Source of the DNA: a virus
DNA: 13,585 nucleotides
Reading direction: 5' to 3' (one strand)
Virus genome (UHGV): UHGV-0122598
The notes under the pieces were generated by a model. That model saw nothing but the letters and a program-made list of their open reading frames with translations. It made no database searches and was not told the origin of the DNA. Shown one piece after another: positions 4,612-13,320 of the stretch. Made by a program: the position numbers and the translations under genes. Positions within the stretch are counted from its first letter, which is position 1, and every line of letters begins with the position of its first letter.

Positions 4612-4953
4612 ATGGCAATTAATGGCGCTGCAGCAACTGTTCCATTAAGCCCCGGTGAACGCCTGAATGGACTTAATCACATTGCGGAGTTAAGGGCGAA
4701 AGTTTTTGGCCTGAATATTGAGTCAGAGCTTGAGCGGTTTATTAAAGATATGCGTGATCCACGGGATATCAATAATGAACAAAATAAACGGGCACTGGCT
4801 GCCATATTCTTTATGGCAAAAATTCCAGCTGAACGTCATAGCATCAGCATTAATGAGCTGACCACTGACGAAAAGCGGGAGTTGATTAAAGCAATGAATC
4901 ATTTTCGTGCAGTGGTGAGCTTATTTCCCAGACGGCTAACCATGCCGAATTAA
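4612..4953 (+). CDS. Hypothetical phage early protein (113 aa)
   Basis: ORF 4612..4953 in the rightward early operon; no recognisable motif. Confidence 0.6.
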   Translation: MAINGAAATVPLSPGERLNGLNHIAELRAKVFGLNIESELERFIKDMRDPRDINNEQNKRALAAIFFMAKIPAERHSISINELTTDEKRELIKAMNHFRAVVSLFPRRLTMPN

Positions 4954-5020
4954 CCAACTAATGAAATTAATGGCGTAAACCCGCCGGGCATCCCTTTATC
5001 TAAATTCAGGAGAATTGATT

Positions 5021-5254
5021 ATGCGTAATATTGAAACCCTCACGACTAAAACCGGACCGGATGACGCAGGGCTTAATATTTTACTGACAGAGGCTCGTCT
5101 GGAAGAACGCCGGGCAAGGGCAGAAGCAATGGCAGCTCGCCTTGATAGCCTGGCGTGTCATATCACATCCCGCCAGCTAAACCACGTCGAAGCGGCAGAA
5201 CTACTGCGTGTAACTGCTGAAGCAATCCAGAACGAAGCGCAGGAGATCCACTAA
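5021..5254 (+). CDS. Hypothetical phage early protein (77 aa)
   Basis: ATG at 5021 preceded by AGGAGAA 8 nt upstream (track start at 5015 is TTG); stop overlaps the next start (TAATG). Confidence 0.55.
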   Translation: MRNIETLTTKTGPDDAGLNILLTEARLEERRARAEAMAARLDSLACHITSRQLNHVEAAELLRVTAEAIQNEAQEIH

Positions 5255-5481
5255 TGGCTGATGCAATGGATCTCGTACAGCAGCGCGTTGAAGAAGAACG
5301 CCAGCGCCATATTCGTGCTGCCCGTGCCAAAACACCGGGCGTGTCTCGCGTGCTTTGTATTGAATGTGAAGCGCCAATTCCGCCAGCACGACGCCGCGCC
5401 ATTCCGGGAGTGCAGCTTTGCATTACCTGTCAGGAAATCGCAGAGCTGAAAGGCAAACATTACAACGGAGGTGCTGTATGA
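5254..5481 (+). CDS. TraR/DksA-family C4 zinc-finger protein (75 aa)
   Basis: Two CxxC pairs (CIECEAPIPPARRRAIPGVQLCITC) in a small basic protein; this family is common upstream of gene A in P2/186-like early operons. Confidence 0.7.
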   Translation: MADAMDLVQQRVEEERQRHIRAARAKTPGVSRVLCIECEAPIPPARRRAIPGVQLCITCQEIAELKGKHYNGGAV

Positions 5482-6335
5482 GCACCATCCTGAAATGGGC
5501 GGGAAATAAAACCGCCATTATGTCCGAACTGAAAAAACACCTTCCTGCTGGCCCGCGACTGGTTGAACCTTTCGCGGGTTCCTGTGCTGTGATGATGGAG
5601 ACGGATTACCCCAGCTATCTGGTTGCGGATATTAATCCTGATTTAATCAACCTCTATAAAAAGGTTGCCGCTGATTGTGAATCGTTTATATCTCGCGCCA
5701 GAGTTTTATTTGAGATCGCAAACAGGGAGGTGGCTTATTACAACATAAGGCAGGAGTTTAATTACTCCACTGAAATTACTGATTTCATGAAAGCGGTATA
5801 TTTCCTGTATCTCAATCGTCACGGTTACCGTGGTTTATGTCGCTATAACAAGAGCGGGCATTTCAACATTCCCTACGGTAATTATAAAAATCCGTATTTC
5901 CCTGAAAAAGAAATTCGCGCATTTGCAGAAAAAGCCCAGCGAGCAACGTTTATCTGCGCCAGCTTTGATGAAACGCTGGCGATGTTGAAGGCGGGGGATG
6001 TGGTGTATTGCGATCCGCCGTATGACGGTACGTTTTCCGGCTATCACACTGACGGCTTCACTGAAGATGACCAGTATCACCTGGCATCTGTTCTTGAACA
6101 TCGGTCATCAGAAGGACATCCGGTCATTGTTTCTAACAGTGACACATCCCTGATCCGTTCGCTGTATCGCAATTTTACTCACCACTACATCAAGGCAAAA
6201 CGCAGCATCGGTGTGGCAGCTGGCGAGGGTAAATCAGCAACAGAAATCATTGCTGTTTCCGGGCCGCGCTGCTGGGTGGGATTTGATTATTCGCGTGGCG
6301 TGGATAGTTCTGCCGTGTACGGAGTACGTGCATGA
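5478..6335 (+). CDS. dam: DNA adenine methyltransferase, Dam family (285 aa from the MSTILKW start)
   Basis: N-terminal KWAGNK...EPFAGS (SAM-binding) and catalytic DPPY ([10 protein letters not shown]); ATG at 5478 preceded by GGAGG; ATGA overlap with the upstream stop; track start at 5418 is an extension. Confidence 0.85.
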
Positions 6336-8746
6336 GTCATGCCGATATGAACAACTGCTGCGGCTTTAACGAAGCTGCCGCATCGTTCTCATGGAACAGC
6401 CCGAAAAAGGCCATTAACCCTTATCTGGACCCGGTGGAAGTTGCGCCGGTTTCTACGCTTTCAAACCTGATCACTCTGTACGCTGCCGATAACGAGCAGG
6501 AACAGCTGCGCCGTGAGGCGCTGAGTGATCAGGTCTGGGAGCGTTATTTCTTTAATGAATCCCGTGATCCTGTCCAGCGCGAAATGGAACAGGATAAGCT
6601 CATTAGTCGGGCAAAGCTGGCGCATGAGCAGCAGCGTTTTAATCCGGATATGGTCATTCTGGCGGACGTCAACGCCCAGCCTTCCCATATCAGCAAGCCG
6701 CTGATGCAACGTATTGAATACTTCAGCAGCCTGGGCAGGCCAAAGGCTTATTCCCGCTATTTACGTGAGACGATTAAGCCATGTCTGGAACGACTGGAGC
6801 ATGTACGCGACAGTCAGCTATCTGCATCTTTTCGCTTTATGGCAAGCCATGAAGGGCTGGACGGCCTGCTGATCCTGCCTGAAATGAGTCAGGATCAGGT
6901 GAAACGCCTGTCCACCCTGGTAGCTGCGCATATGAGTATGTGCCTTGATGCCGCTTGTGGCGATTTGTATGCCACCGATGACGTTAAGCCAGAAGAAATC
7001 CGCAATACATGGGAAAGGGTGGCAGCGGAAACCCTGCGTCTGGATGTAATCCCGCCTGCGTTTGAGCAACTCCGTCGGAAAAGAAACCGCCGTAAACCCG
7101 TGCCCTATGAACTCATTCCGGGTTCGCTGGCGCGTATGTTGTGCGCCGACTGGTGGTACCGGAAATTATGGAAAATGCGTTGCGAATGGCGGGAAGAGCA
7201 GTTGCGTGCTGTCTGCCTTGTCAGCAAAAAAGCATCTCCCTATGTCAGCTATGAAGCCGTGTTGCATAAACGTGAGCAGCGCCGTAAGTCGCTGGAGTTT
7301 TTCCGTTCTCATGAACTGGTGAACGAAGACGGCGACACGCTGGACATGGAGGATGTGGTAAACGCCAGCAGCAGCAACCCTGCGCATCGCCGCAATGAGA
7401 TGATGGCCTGTGTTAAAGGTCTGGAGCTTATCGCGGAAATGCGCGGTGACTGCGCCGTTTTCTACACCATCACCTGTCCGTCACGTTTCCATTCCACGCT
7501 AAATAACGGCAGGCCCAACCCGACCTGGACAAATGCGACGGTAAGACAAAGCAGCGATTATCTGGTCGGTATGTTTGCTGCATTTCGTAAGGCGATGCAC
7601 AAAGCCGGGTTGCGCTGGTATGGCGTGCGGGTGGCTGAGCCGCATCATGACGGTACAGTTCACTGGCACCTGTTGTGTTTCATGCGCAAAAAAGACCGCC
7701 GCGCCATTACTGCATTGTTGCGTAAGTTTGCTATCCGTGAAGACCGCGAGGAGCTGGGCAATAACACGGGGCCGCGCTTTAAGTCTGAGCTGATTAACCC
7801 GCGCAAAGGAACGCCGACAAGCTACATAGCGAAATACATCAGTAAGAACATTGACGGGCGTGGTCTGGCTGGCGAGATCAGCAAGGAAACGGGTAAATCT
7901 CTGCGTGATAACGCTGAATACGTGAACGCCTGGGCGTCTTTGCATCGTGTTCAGCAATTCCGCTTCTTTGGCATTCCGGGGCGTCAGGCTTACCGTGAAC
8001 TGCGATTGCTGGCTGGTCAGGCGGCAAGGCAACAGGGGGACAAAAAAGCAGGTGCGCCGGTACTGGATAACCCGCGCCTTGATGCCATCTTGGCTGCTGC
8101 TGATGCTGGTTGTTTTGCCACCTACATCATGAAGCAGGGCGGCGTACTGGTTCCCCGTAAATATCACCTCATCAGAACCGCTTATGAAATCAACGAAGAG
8201 CCGACCGCCTATGGCGATCACGGCATTCGTATTTATGGCATCTGGTCACCCATTGCAGAGGGCAAGATCTGCACTCATGCAGTGAAGTGGAAAATGGTTC
8301 GTAAAGCCGTTGACGTTCAGGAGGCGGCAGCCGACCAGGGCGCTTGCGCCCCTTGGACTCGTGGCAATAACTGTCCCCTTGCTGAAAATTTGAACCAACA
8401 AGGGAAAGACAAATCAGCTGATGGGGATACCAGAACGGACATTACCCACATGGATGACAAGGAGTTGCACGATTACCTGCACAGTATGAACAAAAAAGAG
8501 CGCCGGGAACTGGCTGCAAGGTTACGCCTGGTGAAACCGAAACGGCGTAGAGACTACAAACAGCGAATTACAGACCATCAACGACAGCAGCTCGTCTATG
8601 AACTGAAGTCCAGAGGATTTGATGGCAGCGAGAAAGAGGTCGATTTACTCCTTCGCGGCGGCAGTATTCCGTCAGGAGCAGGCCTGCGTGTCTTCTATCG
8701 GAACCAGCGTTTGCAGGAAGATGATAAGTGGCGGAACCTGTATTAA
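6332..8746 (+). CDS. A: Phage replication initiation protein, P2/186 gene A family (rolling-circle endonuclease, 804 aa)
   Basis: Large ORF starting with an ATGA overlap on the dam stop; GGAG 7 nt upstream; HUH-like motif VHWHLL and YIAKYISK segment typical of gpA-type replication endonucleases (family knowledge). Confidence 0.85.
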
Positions 8747-8838
8747 TTACGCGGGTTAACAATTCGTGCTCTTAATAATACCAGGCATATCAGGCTGATG
8801 AACGTAAAAAAACGTTTTACATCAGTAAGATTATTATA

Positions 8839-8858
8839 TACTGTAAATATAAACAGTG
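8839..8858 (+). promoter_or_regulatory. LexA operator (SOS box) TACTGTAAATATAAACAGTG overlapping a candidate promoter
   Basis: Exact CTGT-N8-ACAG with AT-rich centre at 8841-8856; TTACAT -35-like hexamer about 20 bp upstream; about 45 bp upstream of the 8900 start. Confidence 0.7.
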
Positions 8859-8899
8859 GTTATCTATACAGTATTGTTTGTGGTGTCATAGGAGGAAAG

Positions 8900-9088
8900 A
8901 TGCAGGACTATTTTTTGGAGTCTTTGAAGCTCCAGCGCATTGATTTTTTTCTTAAGCTTGTAGCGGCTAGTGAGTGTAGTGATGAAGAGAAGGGGCTGGC
9001 TCTGCAGTGGGTTTCTGAATTGACTGATGAACTCATGGCAAAAATCAGAAGCCACGAATACAACCGCTCAATGGATGTCATCAGCTGA
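8900..9088 (+). CDS. Small SOS-regulated protein (62 aa); Tum-like antirepressor by position only
   Basis: ATG at 8900 preceded by GGAGG (8891-8895); directly downstream of the LexA box; the track start at 8798 lies upstream of the operator and is implausible. Confidence 0.5.
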   Translation: MQDYFLESLKLQRIDFFLKLVAASECSDEEKGLALQWVSELTDELMAKIRSHEYNRSMDVIS

Positions 9089-9098
9089 GGTGACTTTT

Positions 9099-9332
9099 AT
9101 GCGCATTGAAATAATGATCGATAAAGAGCAGAAGATTAGCCAGTCTACCCTGGACGCTCTGGAGTCCGAGCTTTACCGCAACCTGCAACCCATCTATCCC
9201 AAGACCGCTATCCGCATCCGTAAAGGGTCGGCAAACGGCGTTGAGCTGAGTGGCTTAAAGCTTGATGAAGACAAAAAGCGGGTGATGGAAATTATGAAAC
9301 AGGTTTGGGAAGACGACAGCTGGCTGCACTAA
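9099..9332 (+). CDS. dinI: DinI-family protein (77 aa)
   Basis: MRIEIMIDK ... LDALESEL ... DEDKKRVMEIMKQVWEDDSW aligns by eye with E. coli DinI (MRIEVTIAK ... EDKQRISEILQETWESADDW); ATG at 9099 with GAGG 8 nt upstream; track start at 9027 is an extension. Confidence 0.8.
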   Translation: MRIEIMIDKEQKISQSTLDALESELYRNLQPIYPKTAIRIRKGSANGVELSGLKLDEDKKRVMEIMKQVWEDDSWLH

Positions 9333-9450
9333 GGAACGTTCCTGATGTAAGAACTTGAATCTGACGTCAGCAAGGTTGAACAACGAGAGTAGCGAGGCGT
9401 TAGCCATGGGTAAAAAAGACAGTAATCACCAGATTATTTATCGGGGCTAG

Positions 9451-9666
9451 GTGCTGGAACGTTTAACCCTTGGCGACTGGGTCTTCTTTCAACGCCCAAA
9501 GGAGTGTGGCGGAGGTTTTTGGTTGGGCCGCATCTATGAAGACTGCTTCTGGCTTGAGCTGGAATTTCCCGTTTCGCTATATGACGGCCTGGGGTTTTTG
9601 ATGGAAGTCACTAGGGTAGAGCAGAGAAGTGATGAGGTTGACGCGAATTATCCCCTGTTTGATTAA
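9451..9666 (+). CDS. Doubtful hypothetical ORF (71 aa, GTG start, Trp-rich)
   Basis: ORF 9451..9666; GTG start, weak RBS, no recognisable motif; may be a remnant. Confidence 0.3.
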   Translation: MLERLTLGDWVFFQRPKECGGGFWLGRIYEDCFWLELEFPVSLYDGLGFLMEVTRVEQRSDEVDANYPLFD

Positions 9667-9685
9667 AAATGTATTAGCTTATAAT
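9659..9685 (+). promoter_or_regulatory. Candidate sigma70 promoter for the membrane-protein gene: TTGATT, 15-bp spacer, TATAAT
   Basis: Perfect -10 TATAAT at 9680-9685, about 30 bp upstream of the ATG at 9715; -35-like TTGATT at 9659-9664 with a short spacer. Confidence 0.35.
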
Positions 9686-9714
9686 GGAATACTATTTTTG
9701 CAGGTGGGGGCGCA

Positions 9715-10326
9715 ATGGATTTAGTCTTTAAAGTTCTGGCTTCGTTGGGTGGGGTGTCTTTTGTTGCATCTGGCATATTTGTTTGGATCGGGAAAGTTTA
9801 TTTAGAAAGATATAAGTCGCGGCTAAACAAAGATATTGCTGAATTTCAATCACAACTGAGTGCAACTAATGAAAGAATAAAGGCTAAGTTAGACAATTCT
9901 GTTTATGTAACGAAAGCGTATTTTGATAAGGAGTTATCAGCATATAGTCTCATTTGGAATTCGATGTTTGAAACCAGAGAAAGCGTGCTTAAGCTGAGGC
10001 CTGCGCTGGATCATGTTGACCCCAACGAACCATTTGAAGAGAGAAAATTTAGAAGGTTGAAAGTTTTTTTTGATGCATTTAACACTTTTGTTACAAGTGT
10101 TGAATCTAACAAACCGTTCATCTCACCAGAGGTTTATATAATCTTGGACCGTTTCCGGAAGGAATGCCTTTCAGAGTCAATATCGTTTAAGCATAGCGAT
10201 CCAGAATTTGACGGGCAAAATTATTGGAAAGAGGCGGAGTTGAACCGTACAACCATCACCAAGCTTTTTGATGAGACGTGTGATGCAATTCGAGACAGGA
10301 TGCACACATTAACTGTGGTTACGTAG
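9715..10326 (+). CDS. Hypothetical single-pass membrane protein (203 aa): N-terminal TM helix plus a helical cytoplasmic domain
   Basis: ORF 9715..10326; GGTGGGGG upstream of the ATG; N-terminal LVFKVLASLGGVSFVASGIFVWIG is a predicted TM helix; about 40% GC by eye; own candidate promoter and downstream terminator. Confidence 0.6.
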   Translation: MDLVFKVLASLGGVSFVASGIFVWIGKVYLERYKSRLNKDIAEFQSQLSATNERIKAKLDNSVYVTKAYFDKELSAYSLIWNSMFETRESVLKLRPALDHVDPNEPFEERKFRRLKVFFDAFNTFVTSVESNKPFISPEVYIILDRFRKECLSESISFKHSDPEFDGQNYWKEAELNRTTITKLFDETCDAIRDRMHTLTVVT

Positions 10327-10416
10327 GTTTCCAAAAAGTCTCGATGCCCGCTTTGGAGATTGTGCATGTCTATGCCGCATGAGATCGCATGATCGTTTGA
10401 GGATCGTTTTTGCTAA

Positions 10417-10441
10417 GGCCCGCCAGAACTGGTGGGCTTTT
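10417..10441 (+). terminator. Rho-independent terminator (GCCCGCC stem, 6-nt loop, GGTGGGC, then TTTT)
   Basis: 7-bp GC-rich stem with one G-U pair followed by TTTTG, about 90 bp downstream of the 203-aa gene stop. Confidence 0.6.
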
Positions 10442-10486
10442 GCGTAGATCATGCAGGTGCATGAAAACCACTACATAAAGCGGGCA

Positions 10487-10505
10487 GGCGTGGCGGGGAT
10501 ACGAG
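10487..10505. other. cos-like sequence (GGCGTGGCGGGGATACGAG) resembling the 19-nt cohesive ends of P2/186-family phages
   Basis: First 13 nt, GGCGTGGCGGGGA, match the 186/P2 cohesive-end sequence as I recall it (GGCG[T/A]GGCGGGGAAAGCA[T/C]); the position between the early-region end and the portal-like gene fits prophage synteny. Confidence 0.4.
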
Positions 10506-10592
10506 CGCGCGCTTAGCCATGAATCTGTGGACTTGATGGTGAAGCTAAGGTAATTTGTATCAAAAAAAAGCAGTACAATAGGGATATATAGA

Positions 10593-11672
10593 GTGGCGTT
10601 ATCAGATGCGTTAATTACAGTAAATCAAGCCGAACGGGGCGGTGAAAACGCGTTGAGAGGCTTTTCATATCAAGCCTCTTGGGGGATAAATTATTTACTT
10701 GAGAAACAAAAAGAAAAGGAGAAATATTTATTTCTATTTGAATATCATGACGATATTCTTGTATTGAATTCATCTGTTTCTCCGACTAGTGCTGAGTTTA
10801 TCCAAGTTAAAACAAAAAAAGATGGTAAATGGACACTCGCAGCAATAGTGAACGCAACAAAAGCTAAACCTAAATCATTTGTTGCAAAACTATATGACCA
10901 TTTCTATCAATTCGTTGGTCACGAAATTTATATGGTTCTGTTATCGAATGCTGGATTCGATTTCTTAAATGATAATAACGAAAAAGGTAGTGATCTTAAT
11001 AATGAGCATAAGGAAATTATAATTAGTAAGGTTCAAGAGCAGCTAAATACTAAAAAAGAAGTTCCTCTTGATAAAATAAAATTTAAAACATCTGATCTTA
11101 GTTTGTTAGATCCTAACTCACATTTATACGGGAAAGTTGCAGTTTTTTTGAATTCTTACTTTGGGGATGATCATGGTATTAATTCAACAGCATTCACTAA
11201 ATTATTAATCAATAAGTGTAATGAGAAGGTTAGTGTTGCTTCTAGTGATATCAAAACTTTTGAAGATTTAGTACTAAAGAAAGGTATATCTTCAGAATTT
11301 GTAACTGATTTATTATCTGGACTCATTGCAAGCATAAAAATAACGCCAAAATGGGAACAGGTTTGTATGTTGCTTGGTACTTTCTCAGATCCTTATGAGG
11401 GGATTAAATTACAATCAGTTTTTACACGCATATCAATAAAAGTGCTCAATGTCAATTCAATATACTATCTTTATTTTCTGGAATTTCAATCGGCTCTAAA
11501 GAGTATAGAGCATTATCGTGAGATACCTGTTCGAGACCTCTTCTTTACACTCGAAAAAACAATTGCAGCGGGGGACGGGGATTTCTCTTTATTAAATCAA
11601 GAAGAGAAATTTATGATTGCTATATATGCAATTATAAAGTTGACTTTTGAGGATGTTTCTTATGAAGAATAA
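10593..11672 (+). CDS. Candidate PD-(D/E)xK-type nuclease effector (359 aa), Cap4/LmuA-like N-terminal domain plus an uncharacterised C-terminal domain
   Basis: ORF 10593..11672 (GTG start, AGGGA upstream); N-terminal LFLFEYHDDILVL ... EFIQVKTKK fits a hhD ... (E/Q)xK restriction-endonuclease-like core; about 30% GC by eye; last 11 nt overlap the start of the downstream ATPase gene. Confidence 0.6.
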   Translation: MALSDALITVNQAERGGENALRGFSYQASWGINYLLEKQKEKEKYLFLFEYHDDILVLNSSVSPTSAEFIQVKTKKDGKWTLAAIVNATKAKPKSFVAKLYDHFYQFVGHEIYMVLLSNAGFDFLNDNNEKGSDLNNEHKEIIISKVQEQLNTKKEVPLDKIKFKTSDLSLLDPNSHLYGKVAVFLNSYFGDDHGINSTAFTKLLINKCNEKVSVASSDIKTFEDLVLKKGISSEFVTDLLSGLIASIKITPKWEQVCMLLGTFSDPYEGIKLQSVFTRISIKVLNVNSIYYLYFLEFQSALKSIEHYREIPVRDLFFTLEKTIAAGDGDFSLLNQEEKFMIAIYAIIKLTFEDVSYEE

Positions 11673-13320
11673 CGTTAAATTTAAAAATATAAAAATACTC
11701 TCATTAAGAGACAGAAAAGCTTTTTCTTATGAGTTTTCAGAAGGGGTTAACTTCATATATGGTACAAATGATGTTGGTAAATCAAGCCTGATTAAAAGTC
11801 TTTATTACACATTAGGTGGAGATTTAAGGCTTGATGATGCTTGGAAATCAGATGATATAGTTACACTGGTGGAAATTAATAACGGGGAAAATGATTTTAT
11901 TTTTTTGCGTTATAAAAAGATTATTGGTGTCTTTGATTTGAAGAATGATGATCTAGTCGTGTATAACACGATTTCGTCATTAGCATCTCGTGTTTCAAAT
12001 ATATTTGGTTTTAAACTGGAATTACATAATAAATATACGGGTGCTACGACTCAGGCAAACCCTGCTTGTTTGTTTGCCCCATTCTTTATTGATCAGGATG
12101 AAGGATGGAAAGCGGTGATAAATTCTTTCGAAAACATGAGTATGTACTCAGAATGGCAAAAAAACATTCTTTACTATCACTCTGGAATTAAGCCAAAGGA
12201 ATATTATACAGTTCAAGGGAAAATCAAAGAAATTAAAGTTAAAATTTCAGAGTTAGATGGTTTTGTTAAGGTTCTAAAAAGAAGCAAAAGTAAGATTGAT
12301 GAATCTTTTGGCGTGGTTTTATTTGATGTTGATTTGGATTTTTATAAATCAAAGTTGGAACGTATATTAAATGAATATTCTAATTTAAATTTAGTTCAGA
12401 CAGAATATAGATTAAATCTTTTGAGGTTATATTCTAGGAAGAATTTCCTTGAGAGTGAACTCAAAGAGATAACTGCGATTATTGATAATGAATTTGAGAT
12501 TTCGAATTTTCGAGATGATAATGTTGCTTATTCAGTAAATGAATATAATTATATAAACCATAGAGATGAAATGCTCAAAAACATTGCTGTTCTTGCAGAT
12601 GAGAAAAGCAAGATTGAGGAAAATATTCCTAAATTGAATCAAAAGCTAGAAGAGTCAAGGGCTGCTTCAGAGGCGTTGCAGGCGCTGATTTTAGAAACTC
12701 AATCGGAAATAACGCTTCATGATGTTATTAAATCTGCCGCATACCATGAAATTGAATCTACTTTTATTTCACAGTTAGATGAGTTATTCGTTGAGATTGG
12801 TCGAAAAGAAGGCGAGTTGACAGAATTACAAGAAGAATTAGAAGTATACAATGATAAGAAAAGAACTGTTAAAATAAATGACTGTTTCAAAGAGTATTTC
12901 GCTAAAGCTCTTAAAGAGCTTGGTGTCGAAAATACAAAGGTAGGTGGCCTTAGTAGTTATAATAATATTACTAAGGGTAAGACTGGTAGTCGAGGTCCTC
13001 GAGGTATATTTGCATTTCACTACGCGCTGCTTAGTGTTATGAAAAGCAACTCTTCAGTTGAGAATATGCCTATAGTAATAGACTCTCCAAAGCAACAAGA
13101 TTTGGATCCAGAGCATACGCATAAGCTTATAAAACTATGCTTGGATGGGTTTTCCCTTACAAATCAGATTATTATTGGAACTGTTGGTTATGAGAGTTTC
13201 ATGGATGGTTTTAATAGCATCAAACTTGAAAATAAATATCATCTTTTAAATGATGAACATTATGATAATGTTTATTCTCAATTAATGCCATTGTTTGAAC
13301 GGGTGATACTTTCAAGATGA
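11662..13320 (+). CDS. SMC/ABC-type coiled-coil ATPase (552 aa from the MKNNVKF start), LmuB-like
   Basis: ATG at 11662 with GAGGA 9 nt upstream; Walker A GTNDVGKSS at residues 34-42; long E/K/L-rich coiled-coil middle; Walker-B-like MPIVIDSP, D-loop-like DLD and His near the C-terminus; the track start at 11647 is a 5-codon extension. Confidence 0.75.
   Translation: MKNNVKFKNIKILSLRDRKAFSYEFSEGVNFIYGTNDVGKSSLIKSLYYTLGGDLRLDDAWKSDDIVTLVEINNGENDFIFLRYKKIIGVFDLKNDDLVVYNTISSLASRVSNIFGFKLELHNKYTGATTQANPACLFAPFFIDQDEGWKAVINSFENMSMYSEWQKNILYYHSGIKPKEYYTVQGKIKEIKVKISELDGFVKVLKRSKSKIDESFGVVLFDVDLDFYKSKLERILNEYSNLNLVQTEYRLNLLRLYSRKNFLESELKEITAIIDNEFEISNFRDDNVAYSVNEYNYINHRDEMLKNIAVLADEKSKIEENIPKLNQKLEESRAASEALQALILETQSEITLHDVIKSAAYHEIESTFISQLDELFVEIGRKEGELTELQEELEVYNDKKRTVKINDCFKEYFAKALKELGVENTKVGGLSSYNNITKGKTGSRGPRGIFAFHYALLSVMKSNSSVENMPIVIDSPKQQDLDPEHTHKLIKLCLDGFSLTNQIIIGTVGYESFMDGFNSIKLENKYHLLNDEHYDNVYSQLMPLFERVILSR

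Follow-up and report, generated by a model that had tools for sequence, protein, structure and literature searches.

The closest described systems are accessory genes carried by P2-family phages. Phage P2 has its exclusion genes tin and old between gene A and cos; both products are soluble, and Old is an ATPase-TOPRIM nuclease. Other prophages encode small membrane-anchored exclusion proteins, such as lactococcal Sie2009 and HK97 gp15, which are expressed in the lysogen, have no enzymatic domain and are narrow in distribution. For phage 186, the sequence record gives the order p95 with a LexA site, tum, the partial terminator t95a, orf97, the terminator t95b and cos, and says of orf97 that 'expression from plasmid blocks 186 infection'. 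The whole interval from gpA to gpQ was treated as a defence hotspot by Rousset et al. (2022). Here we describe a gene of 203 codons located after gene A and before cos in UHGV virus genome UHGV-0122598 (13,585 nt; this whole stretch is called the window below). We found that the gene, a moron of a 186-type prophage, stands on its own, is maintained by selection, is expressed in the lysogen with a boost from SOS induction, and encodes a membrane-anchored helical bundle. We suggest, tentatively, that it most likely excludes phages, acting at the cytoplasmic face of the inner membrane.

The window holds the early-gene end of an integrated prophage that belongs to the 186 type of the P2 family. 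It also encodes an integrase, a CI-type repressor and the replication endonuclease (gene A, product gpA; 804 amino acids (aa), 6332-8746), and it ends on the right with the C-terminus of the portal gene, which is on the minus strand. Among phage records, Cartapus (a P2-like prophage of Escherichia coli LF82) comes closest, with a 97.5% match over window positions 4612-10454. The 203-aa gene (9715-10326, plus strand) has an ATG start and an intact open reading frame (ORF), as the initial annotation had it, and its orthologue (LF82_789 / CARTA_47 / WP_000366628.1) is 98.5% identical at the nucleotide level in LF82. The gene is under purifying selection: between E. coli and Enterobacter prophage copies the ratio of nonsynonymous to synonymous substitution rates (dN/dS) is 0.11-0.14, about 0.12 (dS 0.72-0.86, dN ~0.10). 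This is a real gene and not a chance ORF, because its family has 913 representatives at E<=1e-3 and its dN/dS is that low. It is found in 52 out of 5,426 complete E. coli genomes, and is chromosomal in every case.

A candidate promoter with a perfect TATAAT and a good ribosome-binding site had been proposed for the gene, and both are there. The Shine-Dalgarno-like sequence GGTGGGGG (9703-9710, plus strand) stands 4 nt before the ATG. TATAAT is at 9680-9685, and the best -35 hexamer is TTGATT at 9659-9664, giving a candidate promoter at 9659-9685 (plus strand) that was not called by a sigma-70 consensus scan because its spacer is 15 bp. The E. coli and Enterobacter copies are 83% identical overall and do not differ in either hexamer or in the spacing.

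Expression data for the orthologue in LF82 (not the window strain) are available from Misson et al. (2023; PMC9928086), who list LF82_789 as one of two Cartapus morons, expressed 7-fold over the prophage background in lysogeny broth (LB). We used the values of their S1 table, given as log2(fpkm+5), where fpkm is fragments per kilobase per million mapped reads; the conditions are LB stationary phase (BLB), THP1 macrophages at 6 h (MB6) and, presumably, Dulbecco's modified Eagle medium (DMEM) at 1 and 6 h (B1 and B6) and macrophages at 1 h (MB1). LF82_789 has values of 5.4/5.6 in LB, 7.1/7.3 in B1, 8.6/8.5 in B6, 9.0/9.0 in MB1 and 10.5/10.5 in MB6, and the ORF directly upstream (LF82_790, an ORF of 86 codons) has 3.3/3.1, 3.3/3.6, 2.8/2.6, 4.9/5.2 and 7.5/7.7 in the same conditions. 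The 203-aa gene is thus expressed ~5-fold (LB) to ~60-fold (B6) higher than its upstream neighbor, which supports a promoter of its own between the 86-codon ORF and its ATG, and this fits the invariant TATAAT. Autonomous transcription in the lysogen, one of the two marks of a moron, is therefore observed for the LF82 orthologue. That the gene stands alone, as first annotated, also holds: it has no partner gene, and the orthologue is transcribed independently of the ORF before it.

Upstream of the gene lies an operon under LexA control, with which its expression rises; the initial annotation had missed it. The LexA box TACTGTAAATATAAACAGTG (8839-8858, plus strand) is the only zero-mismatch CTGT-N8-ACAG in the window, its 20-mer is identical in Cartapus/LF82, and it overlaps a p95-like SOS promoter (8816-8858, plus strand; TTTACA, 17-bp spacer, TACTGT), arranged as at the annotated p95/LexA site of 186. 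The operon has two genes upstream of the variable DNA that carries our gene, both on the plus strand: a 62-aa ORF (8900-9088, phrog_698) and a DinI-like ORF (9099-9332). The DinI-like ORF shares 41% identity with the C-terminal half of 186 Tum. No similarity to Tum, its N-terminal half included, is seen in the 62-aa ORF, which suggests that the antirepressor part was replaced or split. From LB to MB6, the 62-aa ORF rises from 4.2/4.6 to 11.0/10.9 and the DinI-like ORF from 2.9/3.1 to 9.2/9.3 (~70-90-fold up in macrophages for the genes of this operon), while gpA stays silent (flat at ~2.5-2.9). In other words, the LexA operon comes on in macrophages while the prophage does not replicate, and the 203-aa gene rises alongside. 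LF82_789 itself is ~32-fold up in macrophages, and ~8-fold up in B6 without induction of the SOS operon.

The gene lies in a well-delimited insert. According to blastn boundaries, the variable, mobile unit is 957 bp long (9405-10361); it is missing from phage 500465-1, where the flanks are 6 bp apart, and comparison with that phage assigns window positions 8551-9404 and 10362-10512 to the backbone. The interval first marked out for the gene (9451-10441) does cover it, but it also takes in part of a separate ORF (9406-9666) and a hairpin of the cos block, and its limits are not those of the mobile unit. The gene was said to be richer in AT than the phage core, to lie between the early genes and cos, and to occupy a slot of the tin/old type. 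All three statements hold: G+C content is 0.365-0.417 over the gene vs 0.52-0.55 in the replication gene, and we are dealing with an autonomous accessory gene in the gpA-to-cos interval of a P2-family prophage. The insert is dispensable, of atypical composition and absent from close relatives, which is the second mark of a moron.

The insert also holds the 86-codon ORF (9406-9666, plus strand), which is a remnant here. It matches phrog_2100, a family of unknown function, and is intact in Cartapus and NCTC9038; a CAG-to-TAG nonsense change at 9448 (TAG at 9448-9450) interrupts it in this window and in strain FDN-11, and the Enterobacter copy has three lesions (start lost, a frameshift and a stop). 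Inactivation of this ORF has therefore happened independently in different lineages. Both ORFs travel in the same 957-bp insert, and one could think of a toxin-antitoxin or addiction pair. We consider such a pair very improbable: the 203-aa gene is intact throughout, including where the upstream ORF is broken, the phrog_2100 family is found without the 203-aa family in many phages (SSU5, P22-like, Klebsiella and Serratia phages), and distant relatives of the 203-aa gene have no such neighbor. The 86-codon ORF is not an obligate partner of the 203-aa gene, because it is broken where the gene is intact and its family occurs alone elsewhere; with no obligate co-occurrence of the two intact genes, we rejected the pair. 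The DNA of the 86-codon ORF is 85% identical between E. coli and Enterobacter, as compared with 66% for the third codon positions of the neighboring gene, which suggests either recent decay or a constraint on the DNA or RNA itself.

The 203-aa protein is predicted to be a single-pass inner-membrane protein, oriented with the N-terminus out and the C-terminus in, whose bulk is cytoplasmic. The N-terminal transmembrane (TM) helix that had been proposed corresponds to residues 7-25 (9733-9789, plus strand), where the Kyte-Doolittle mean hydropathy peaks at 2.01, and an N-terminal hydrophobic helix (Kyte-Doolittle>=1.6) is found in 133 out of 144 full-length relatives. The orientation was deduced because lysine and arginine are more abundant after the TM helix (on average 3.36 in the 15 residues on the C-terminal side vs 0.46 on the N-terminal side; the C-terminal flank is the richer one in 167 out of 172 family members) and because no second hydrophobic segment is present in any of the 172 members checked. 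The helix carries conserved small residues, with G12, G13, G20 and G26 invariant.

The soluble domain, called helical in the initial annotation, is all-helical in AlphaFold2 models as well. AlphaFold2, run with a 60-sequence alignment, gave five concordant models with a predicted local distance difference test score (pLDDT) of 78-83.5; the best model has a pLDDT of 83.5 overall and >90 for residues 70-200. One long predicted helix (residues 3-92) runs through the TM segment and a ~40-residue stalk into the first helix of the bundle, and the predicted helices 107-131, 138-160 and 168-198 complete an up-down four-helix bundle. The architecture predicted from these models is therefore a TM helix, a helical stalk and a cytoplasmic four-helix bundle (approximately residues 66-198; 9910-10308, plus strand), with ~7 residues outside. 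Conserved positions in the bundle include E73, Y77, W81, L94-R95-P96, R114, P134-F135, E154, Y170, R193 and R195.

An exhaustive profile search returned the 913 family representatives (clusters at 50% identity) mentioned above, and 384 of them are retained at E<=1e-10. Nearly all are 190-220 aa long, and they are spread over bacteria, phages, satellites and one archaeal metagenome-assembled genome. The 203-aa protein matches phrog_26391 over its full length (E 1.7e-142), a family of unknown function. The initial annotation recognized no domain, and the databases gave the same result: there is no family match in Pfam or NCBIfam, Pfam gave none for 60 relatives either, apart from one borderline holin match (see below), and a profile search of Protein Data Bank (PDB) sequences had no match. 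Longer relatives show no domain fusions, only longer coiled coils or likely mis-called N-termini. Searching the literature with accession numbers and peptide strings returned nothing, including in the supplements of DefensePredictor and of the LF82 CRISPR interference (CRISPRi) preprint, and we found no named family or tested function in a literature whose coverage excluded the prophage-defence screen of Brenes and Laub (2025). The raw locus tables of Rousset et al. (2022) list this protein, as 'hypothetical' only. At least 14 RefSeq genomes label it 'valyl-tRNA synthetase', which is an annotation error because it goes back to a sub-threshold coiled-coil match to Val_tRNA-synt_C (16.7 bits, cut-off 25.9). 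Another candidate, a BFVD match to HP1 orf1 (P2-like phage, between int and cI), was rejected: its hhalign probability is 0.2% and it has two TM helices.

The 60-sequence alignment was too poorly conserved for the discovery of further loci, and we used a narrower alignment, which led to 5 genome and 27 viral loci. The gene is solitary in all loci examined, with no recurrent neighbor. Relatives are found adjoining an integrase; in an element with HicB, Gp49/HTH, ParA and AbiE; at a locus with HigBA, HNH-WYL and an integrase; and at another with SNF2, DUF6094 and E1/E2-like genes. One relative is inside a type I restriction-modification (R-M) operon (L031/L032, 6001-6603), 3 bp past hsdS and before a DUF3800 gene and hsdR. 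Pseudomonas phage Riah has one in its immunity region, and Clostridium phage Maintenon has one between its terminase genes. In six satellite-like elements (IMG/VR contigs), the order is int-alpA-X-...-AAA_25, where X is the relative. These six contigs and a Kosakonia genome (L061-L066 and L004; mostly 6001-6612) have relatives 39-56% identical to our protein, and the order in these satellite or phage-inducible chromosomal island (PICI)-like elements is a P4-type integrase, AlpA, X and an AAA_25 primase/helicase-like gene. The integrases of the satellite-like elements share only 52-100% identity, which indicates that the gene has been stably retained there. The sampled contexts are mostly mobile or defence DNA, in a tally that has no matched controls and is not an enrichment test.

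An anti-phage role is plausible because of the slot, the contexts in mobile genetic elements and defence islands, and the copy inside the type I R-M operon. The best new support for exclusion is positional, namely that orf97 in the same slot of 186 blocks 186 infection according to its record. Mechanistically, the bundle would bind or sense either a component of the phage or a host component that the phage has altered, and the glycine-rich TM helix may self-associate. Self-associated TM helices could then disturb the membrane (abortive infection, Abi) or block genome entry or establishment (superinfection exclusion, Sie). Of the two, we somewhat favor an Abi-like membrane mechanism over a receptor-specific Sie block, because the family is very broad, because the conserved small-residue face of the TM helix suggests self-association, and because almost no protein would be exposed outside the cell. 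Taken further, the TM-stalk-four-helix-bundle family (at least 384 clusters at 50% identity, with no Pfam entry) could be a new anti-phage system that is widespread and consists of a single gene. The tethered bundle would sense infection, oligomerization of the glycine-rich TM helix would abort it, and P2/186 prophages, PICI-like satellites and type I R-M loci would carry the gene as exchangeable cargo; we regard this as possible, but doubtful.

Several observations weigh against an exclusion role. No phenotype is on record for any family member. A PADLOC scan of the region, one of the checks proposed at the outset, found the neighboring Lamassu system (see below) and no family at E<=1 for the 203-aa protein, and 60 relatives gave only scattered single matches (E 1e-4 to 1e-2) attributable to coiled-coil; the defence profiles were those of PADLOC-DB v2, which include Abi, PD-, PDC- and hotspot systems and predate systems described after 2023. 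The bundle fold is generic and carries no effector signature, and the conserved glutamate and arginine residues could, judging from their helix positions, be structural inter-helix salt bridges. In 11 E. coli genomes, several of them Shiga toxin-producing E. coli (STEC), the copies are ~90% identical and ~20 bp shorter. The sole shortened copy examined, in strain RM10410, is truncated within a decayed element. Relatives also occur in housekeeping-like neighborhoods: between cysD and cysN of a sulfate-assimilation operon, beside an inositol-1-phosphate synthase gene, and in a chromosomal neighborhood of Methylobacter; one further context was ambiguous. Finally, a stress-related moron would explain the induction seen in DMEM and macrophages just as well.

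Some details of these copies can be added. Among the 11 shortened copies, five have no annotated feature and the remainder are annotated as 'hypothetical protein'. In RM10410 (L067, 1501-2092) the annotation has only a 114-aa ORF, with an integrase pseudogene next to it and a PRTase-DprA pair downstream, a context from which we take it that the gene decays in degraded elements. The cysD-X-cysN arrangement is found in several metagenome contigs (L019-L021; 6001-6639 in L019), with X ending 8 bp before cysN, and these surroundings look neither mobile nor defensive.

The induction pattern and the housekeeping neighborhoods are what one would expect if the gene benefited the host by lysogenic conversion, its membrane-tethered bundle aiding the lysogen under envelope, nutritional or DNA-damage stress, for example in macrophages; that the fold class is one of sensor domains points the same way. 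Yet the sampled contexts are for the most part prophages, satellites, integrase-adjacent islands and defence loci, the slot is a documented defence hotspot where a 186 gene blocks phage infection, and the protein has no output domain or partner to pass on a signal. On balance we think a host-benefit function somewhat unlikely, and phage exclusion remains the role that we favor.

Directly past the gene is cos, a closeness that the initial annotation had missed. The conserved cos-region backbone (10362-10512) occurs in 1,289 E. coli records irrespective of cargo and can be aligned to the right end of phage 186; positions 10487-10499 (GGCGTGGCGGGGA) match the annotated cos of 186, and the cohesive-end sequence starts at 10487. 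The block also has GCATG-type repeats and a hairpin (inverted repeat, 10415-10440) followed by TTTTG, with a dG of -23.2 kcal/mol (z = -4.96 vs shuffles). This hairpin had been read as the gene's own terminator, but it belongs to the conserved block and is therefore backbone. It may nevertheless terminate transcription here too: 186 has a separate terminator, t95b, upstream of the cos block, and since t95b is missing in the window, the hairpin with its TTTTG may have taken over termination. The content of the slot before cos varies from phage to phage. For example, it is empty in phage 500465-1 (L025, 2145-2150), it holds orf97 in 186, and in Klebsiella phage ST15-OXA48phi14.1 (L026, 2360-3420) it holds two unrelated hypothetical genes (72 and 280 aa); phages 500465-1 and ST15-OXA48phi14.1 both have TIR-domain genes past cos.

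A gene that directly adjoins cos, lies downstream of and co-oriented with a LexA-controlled operon and rises with it in expression might help the phage itself after SOS induction, by lysis timing, by holin modulation or as a membrane tether for replication or packaging. One distant relative (P0213) is in fact exactly at the threshold of the LLH-type holin family PF09682, at 24.9 bits. However, that match is limited to residues 4-78 (TM segment and stalk) of this one member, and our protein is unmatched; the gene is not near lysis genes here, in Riah or in Maintenon, and adjoins none in any locus examined. It is also dispensable, being found in 52 out of ~1,284 E. coli genomes with the cos block and missing in close relatives such as 500465-1, and it is expressed in uninduced lysogens while gpA is silent. 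A life-cycle function is therefore unlikely, more so than a benefit to the host, and exclusion is preferred to both.

Beyond cos, in the slot between cos and the portal gene (the cos-Q slot), there is a Lamassu system that was also missed in the initial annotation. It consists of two plus-strand genes overlapping by 26 nt, with a G+C content of ~0.30 and no LmuC: LmuA, a Cap4 nuclease (10593-11672; PADLOC 4e-143, Pfam Cap4_nuclease), and LmuB, an SMC-like ATPase (11647-13320; PADLOC 8.6e-254). The 203-aa gene shares its strand with LmuA and precedes it by ~270 bp, and the gene's product is similar in size to LmuC proteins, so that it might be taken for a third (LmuC-like or accessory) component of this Lamassu. 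Several lines of evidence make this extremely improbable. The conserved cos block with its hairpin and cohesive end intervenes, which puts the two at opposite ends of the packaged genome; the G+C content differs (0.38 for the gene vs 0.30 for Lamassu); and no LmuC model of PADLOC matches the protein. Out of the 5,426 complete E. coli genomes, 52 have the gene, 11 have this Lamassu (>=98.8% identity) and none has both, and the gene is found beside at least 11 different cos-Q cargos. Membership in Lamassu was thus rejected by the co-occurrence data and by the lack of a shared operon.

The cargos found beside the gene include AIPR, DUF4145, a KAP NTPase, an AAA_22 ATPase, a RelA/SpoT protein, a PRTase-DprA pair, a HIRAN-containing pair, a retron reverse transcriptase with STM3845, an OLD-like ATPase and an AAA_21-RloB pair. 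The two slots flanking cos assort independently, because the gene and this Lamassu never occur together in these genomes and the gene is found beside many other cos-Q cargos. The prophage in the window combines the 203-aa gene with this Lamassu, a pairing absent from the 5,426-genome collection.

Cargo of unassigned function in the cos-proximal hotspot of P2 phages is already known, and this gene is a well-delimited but ordinary case with no mechanistic surprise so far. If it is an exclusion or Abi factor, it would be a compact addition to the known systems, made up of one gene and lacking any known domain, and would put a name to a large unannotated family that crosses phyla; the pre-cos and cos-Q slots of P2/186 phages would then be two independently assorting defence slots. 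A role in benefiting the host would matter too, as the orthologue is one of only two Cartapus morons in the Crohn's-associated pathobiont LF82 and is ~30-fold induced in macrophages.

Compared with described systems, the protein has the N-terminal TM helix followed by a charged helix of LLH-type holins (PF09682), but its conserved C-terminal bundle has no counterpart in them, and 59 other relatives are, like the query, unmatched by that family. The four-helix-bundle sensors Tar/Tsr, TorS, Adeh_2942 and PcaY are only 3-9% identical, a generic similarity of fold that is not evidence of homology. Moreover, the sensor bundles of chemoreceptors and histidine kinases sit in the periplasm, flanked by a TM helix on either side, and signal to an output domain, whereas the bundle here is predicted to be cytoplasmic, with no second TM helix and no fused output domain of the kind found with 4HB_MCP-type sensors. 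With Sie2009 and HK97 gp15, going by their general descriptions, the gene shares being a single small membrane-anchored prophage gene that is expressed in the lysogen and has no enzymatic domain; unlike them, its family spans many phyla and most of the protein is predicted to lie in the cytoplasm. No relationship in sequence to these proteins was found, in searches not aimed at them.

Like tin and old of P2, it is an AT-rich accessory gene that a P2-family phage carries between gpA and cos, but the proteins are unrelated, the 203-aa protein having no PADLOC or Pfam match. Phage 186 offers another parallel. Orf97 differs in length (243 aa), in having two N-terminal hydrophobic segments and in its soluble part, and homology between the two was rejected (hhalign of the family profile, probability 1.0%). 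Both proteins, however, begin with hydrophobic membrane segment(s), both are encoded by non-essential accessory genes, and both genes are in the same slot, distal to the LexA-controlled tum/dinI-like gene(s) and proximal to cos, with the LexA box (8839-8858), the DinI-like ORF (9099-9332) and cos (10487) of the window arranged around our gene as their counterparts are around orf97.

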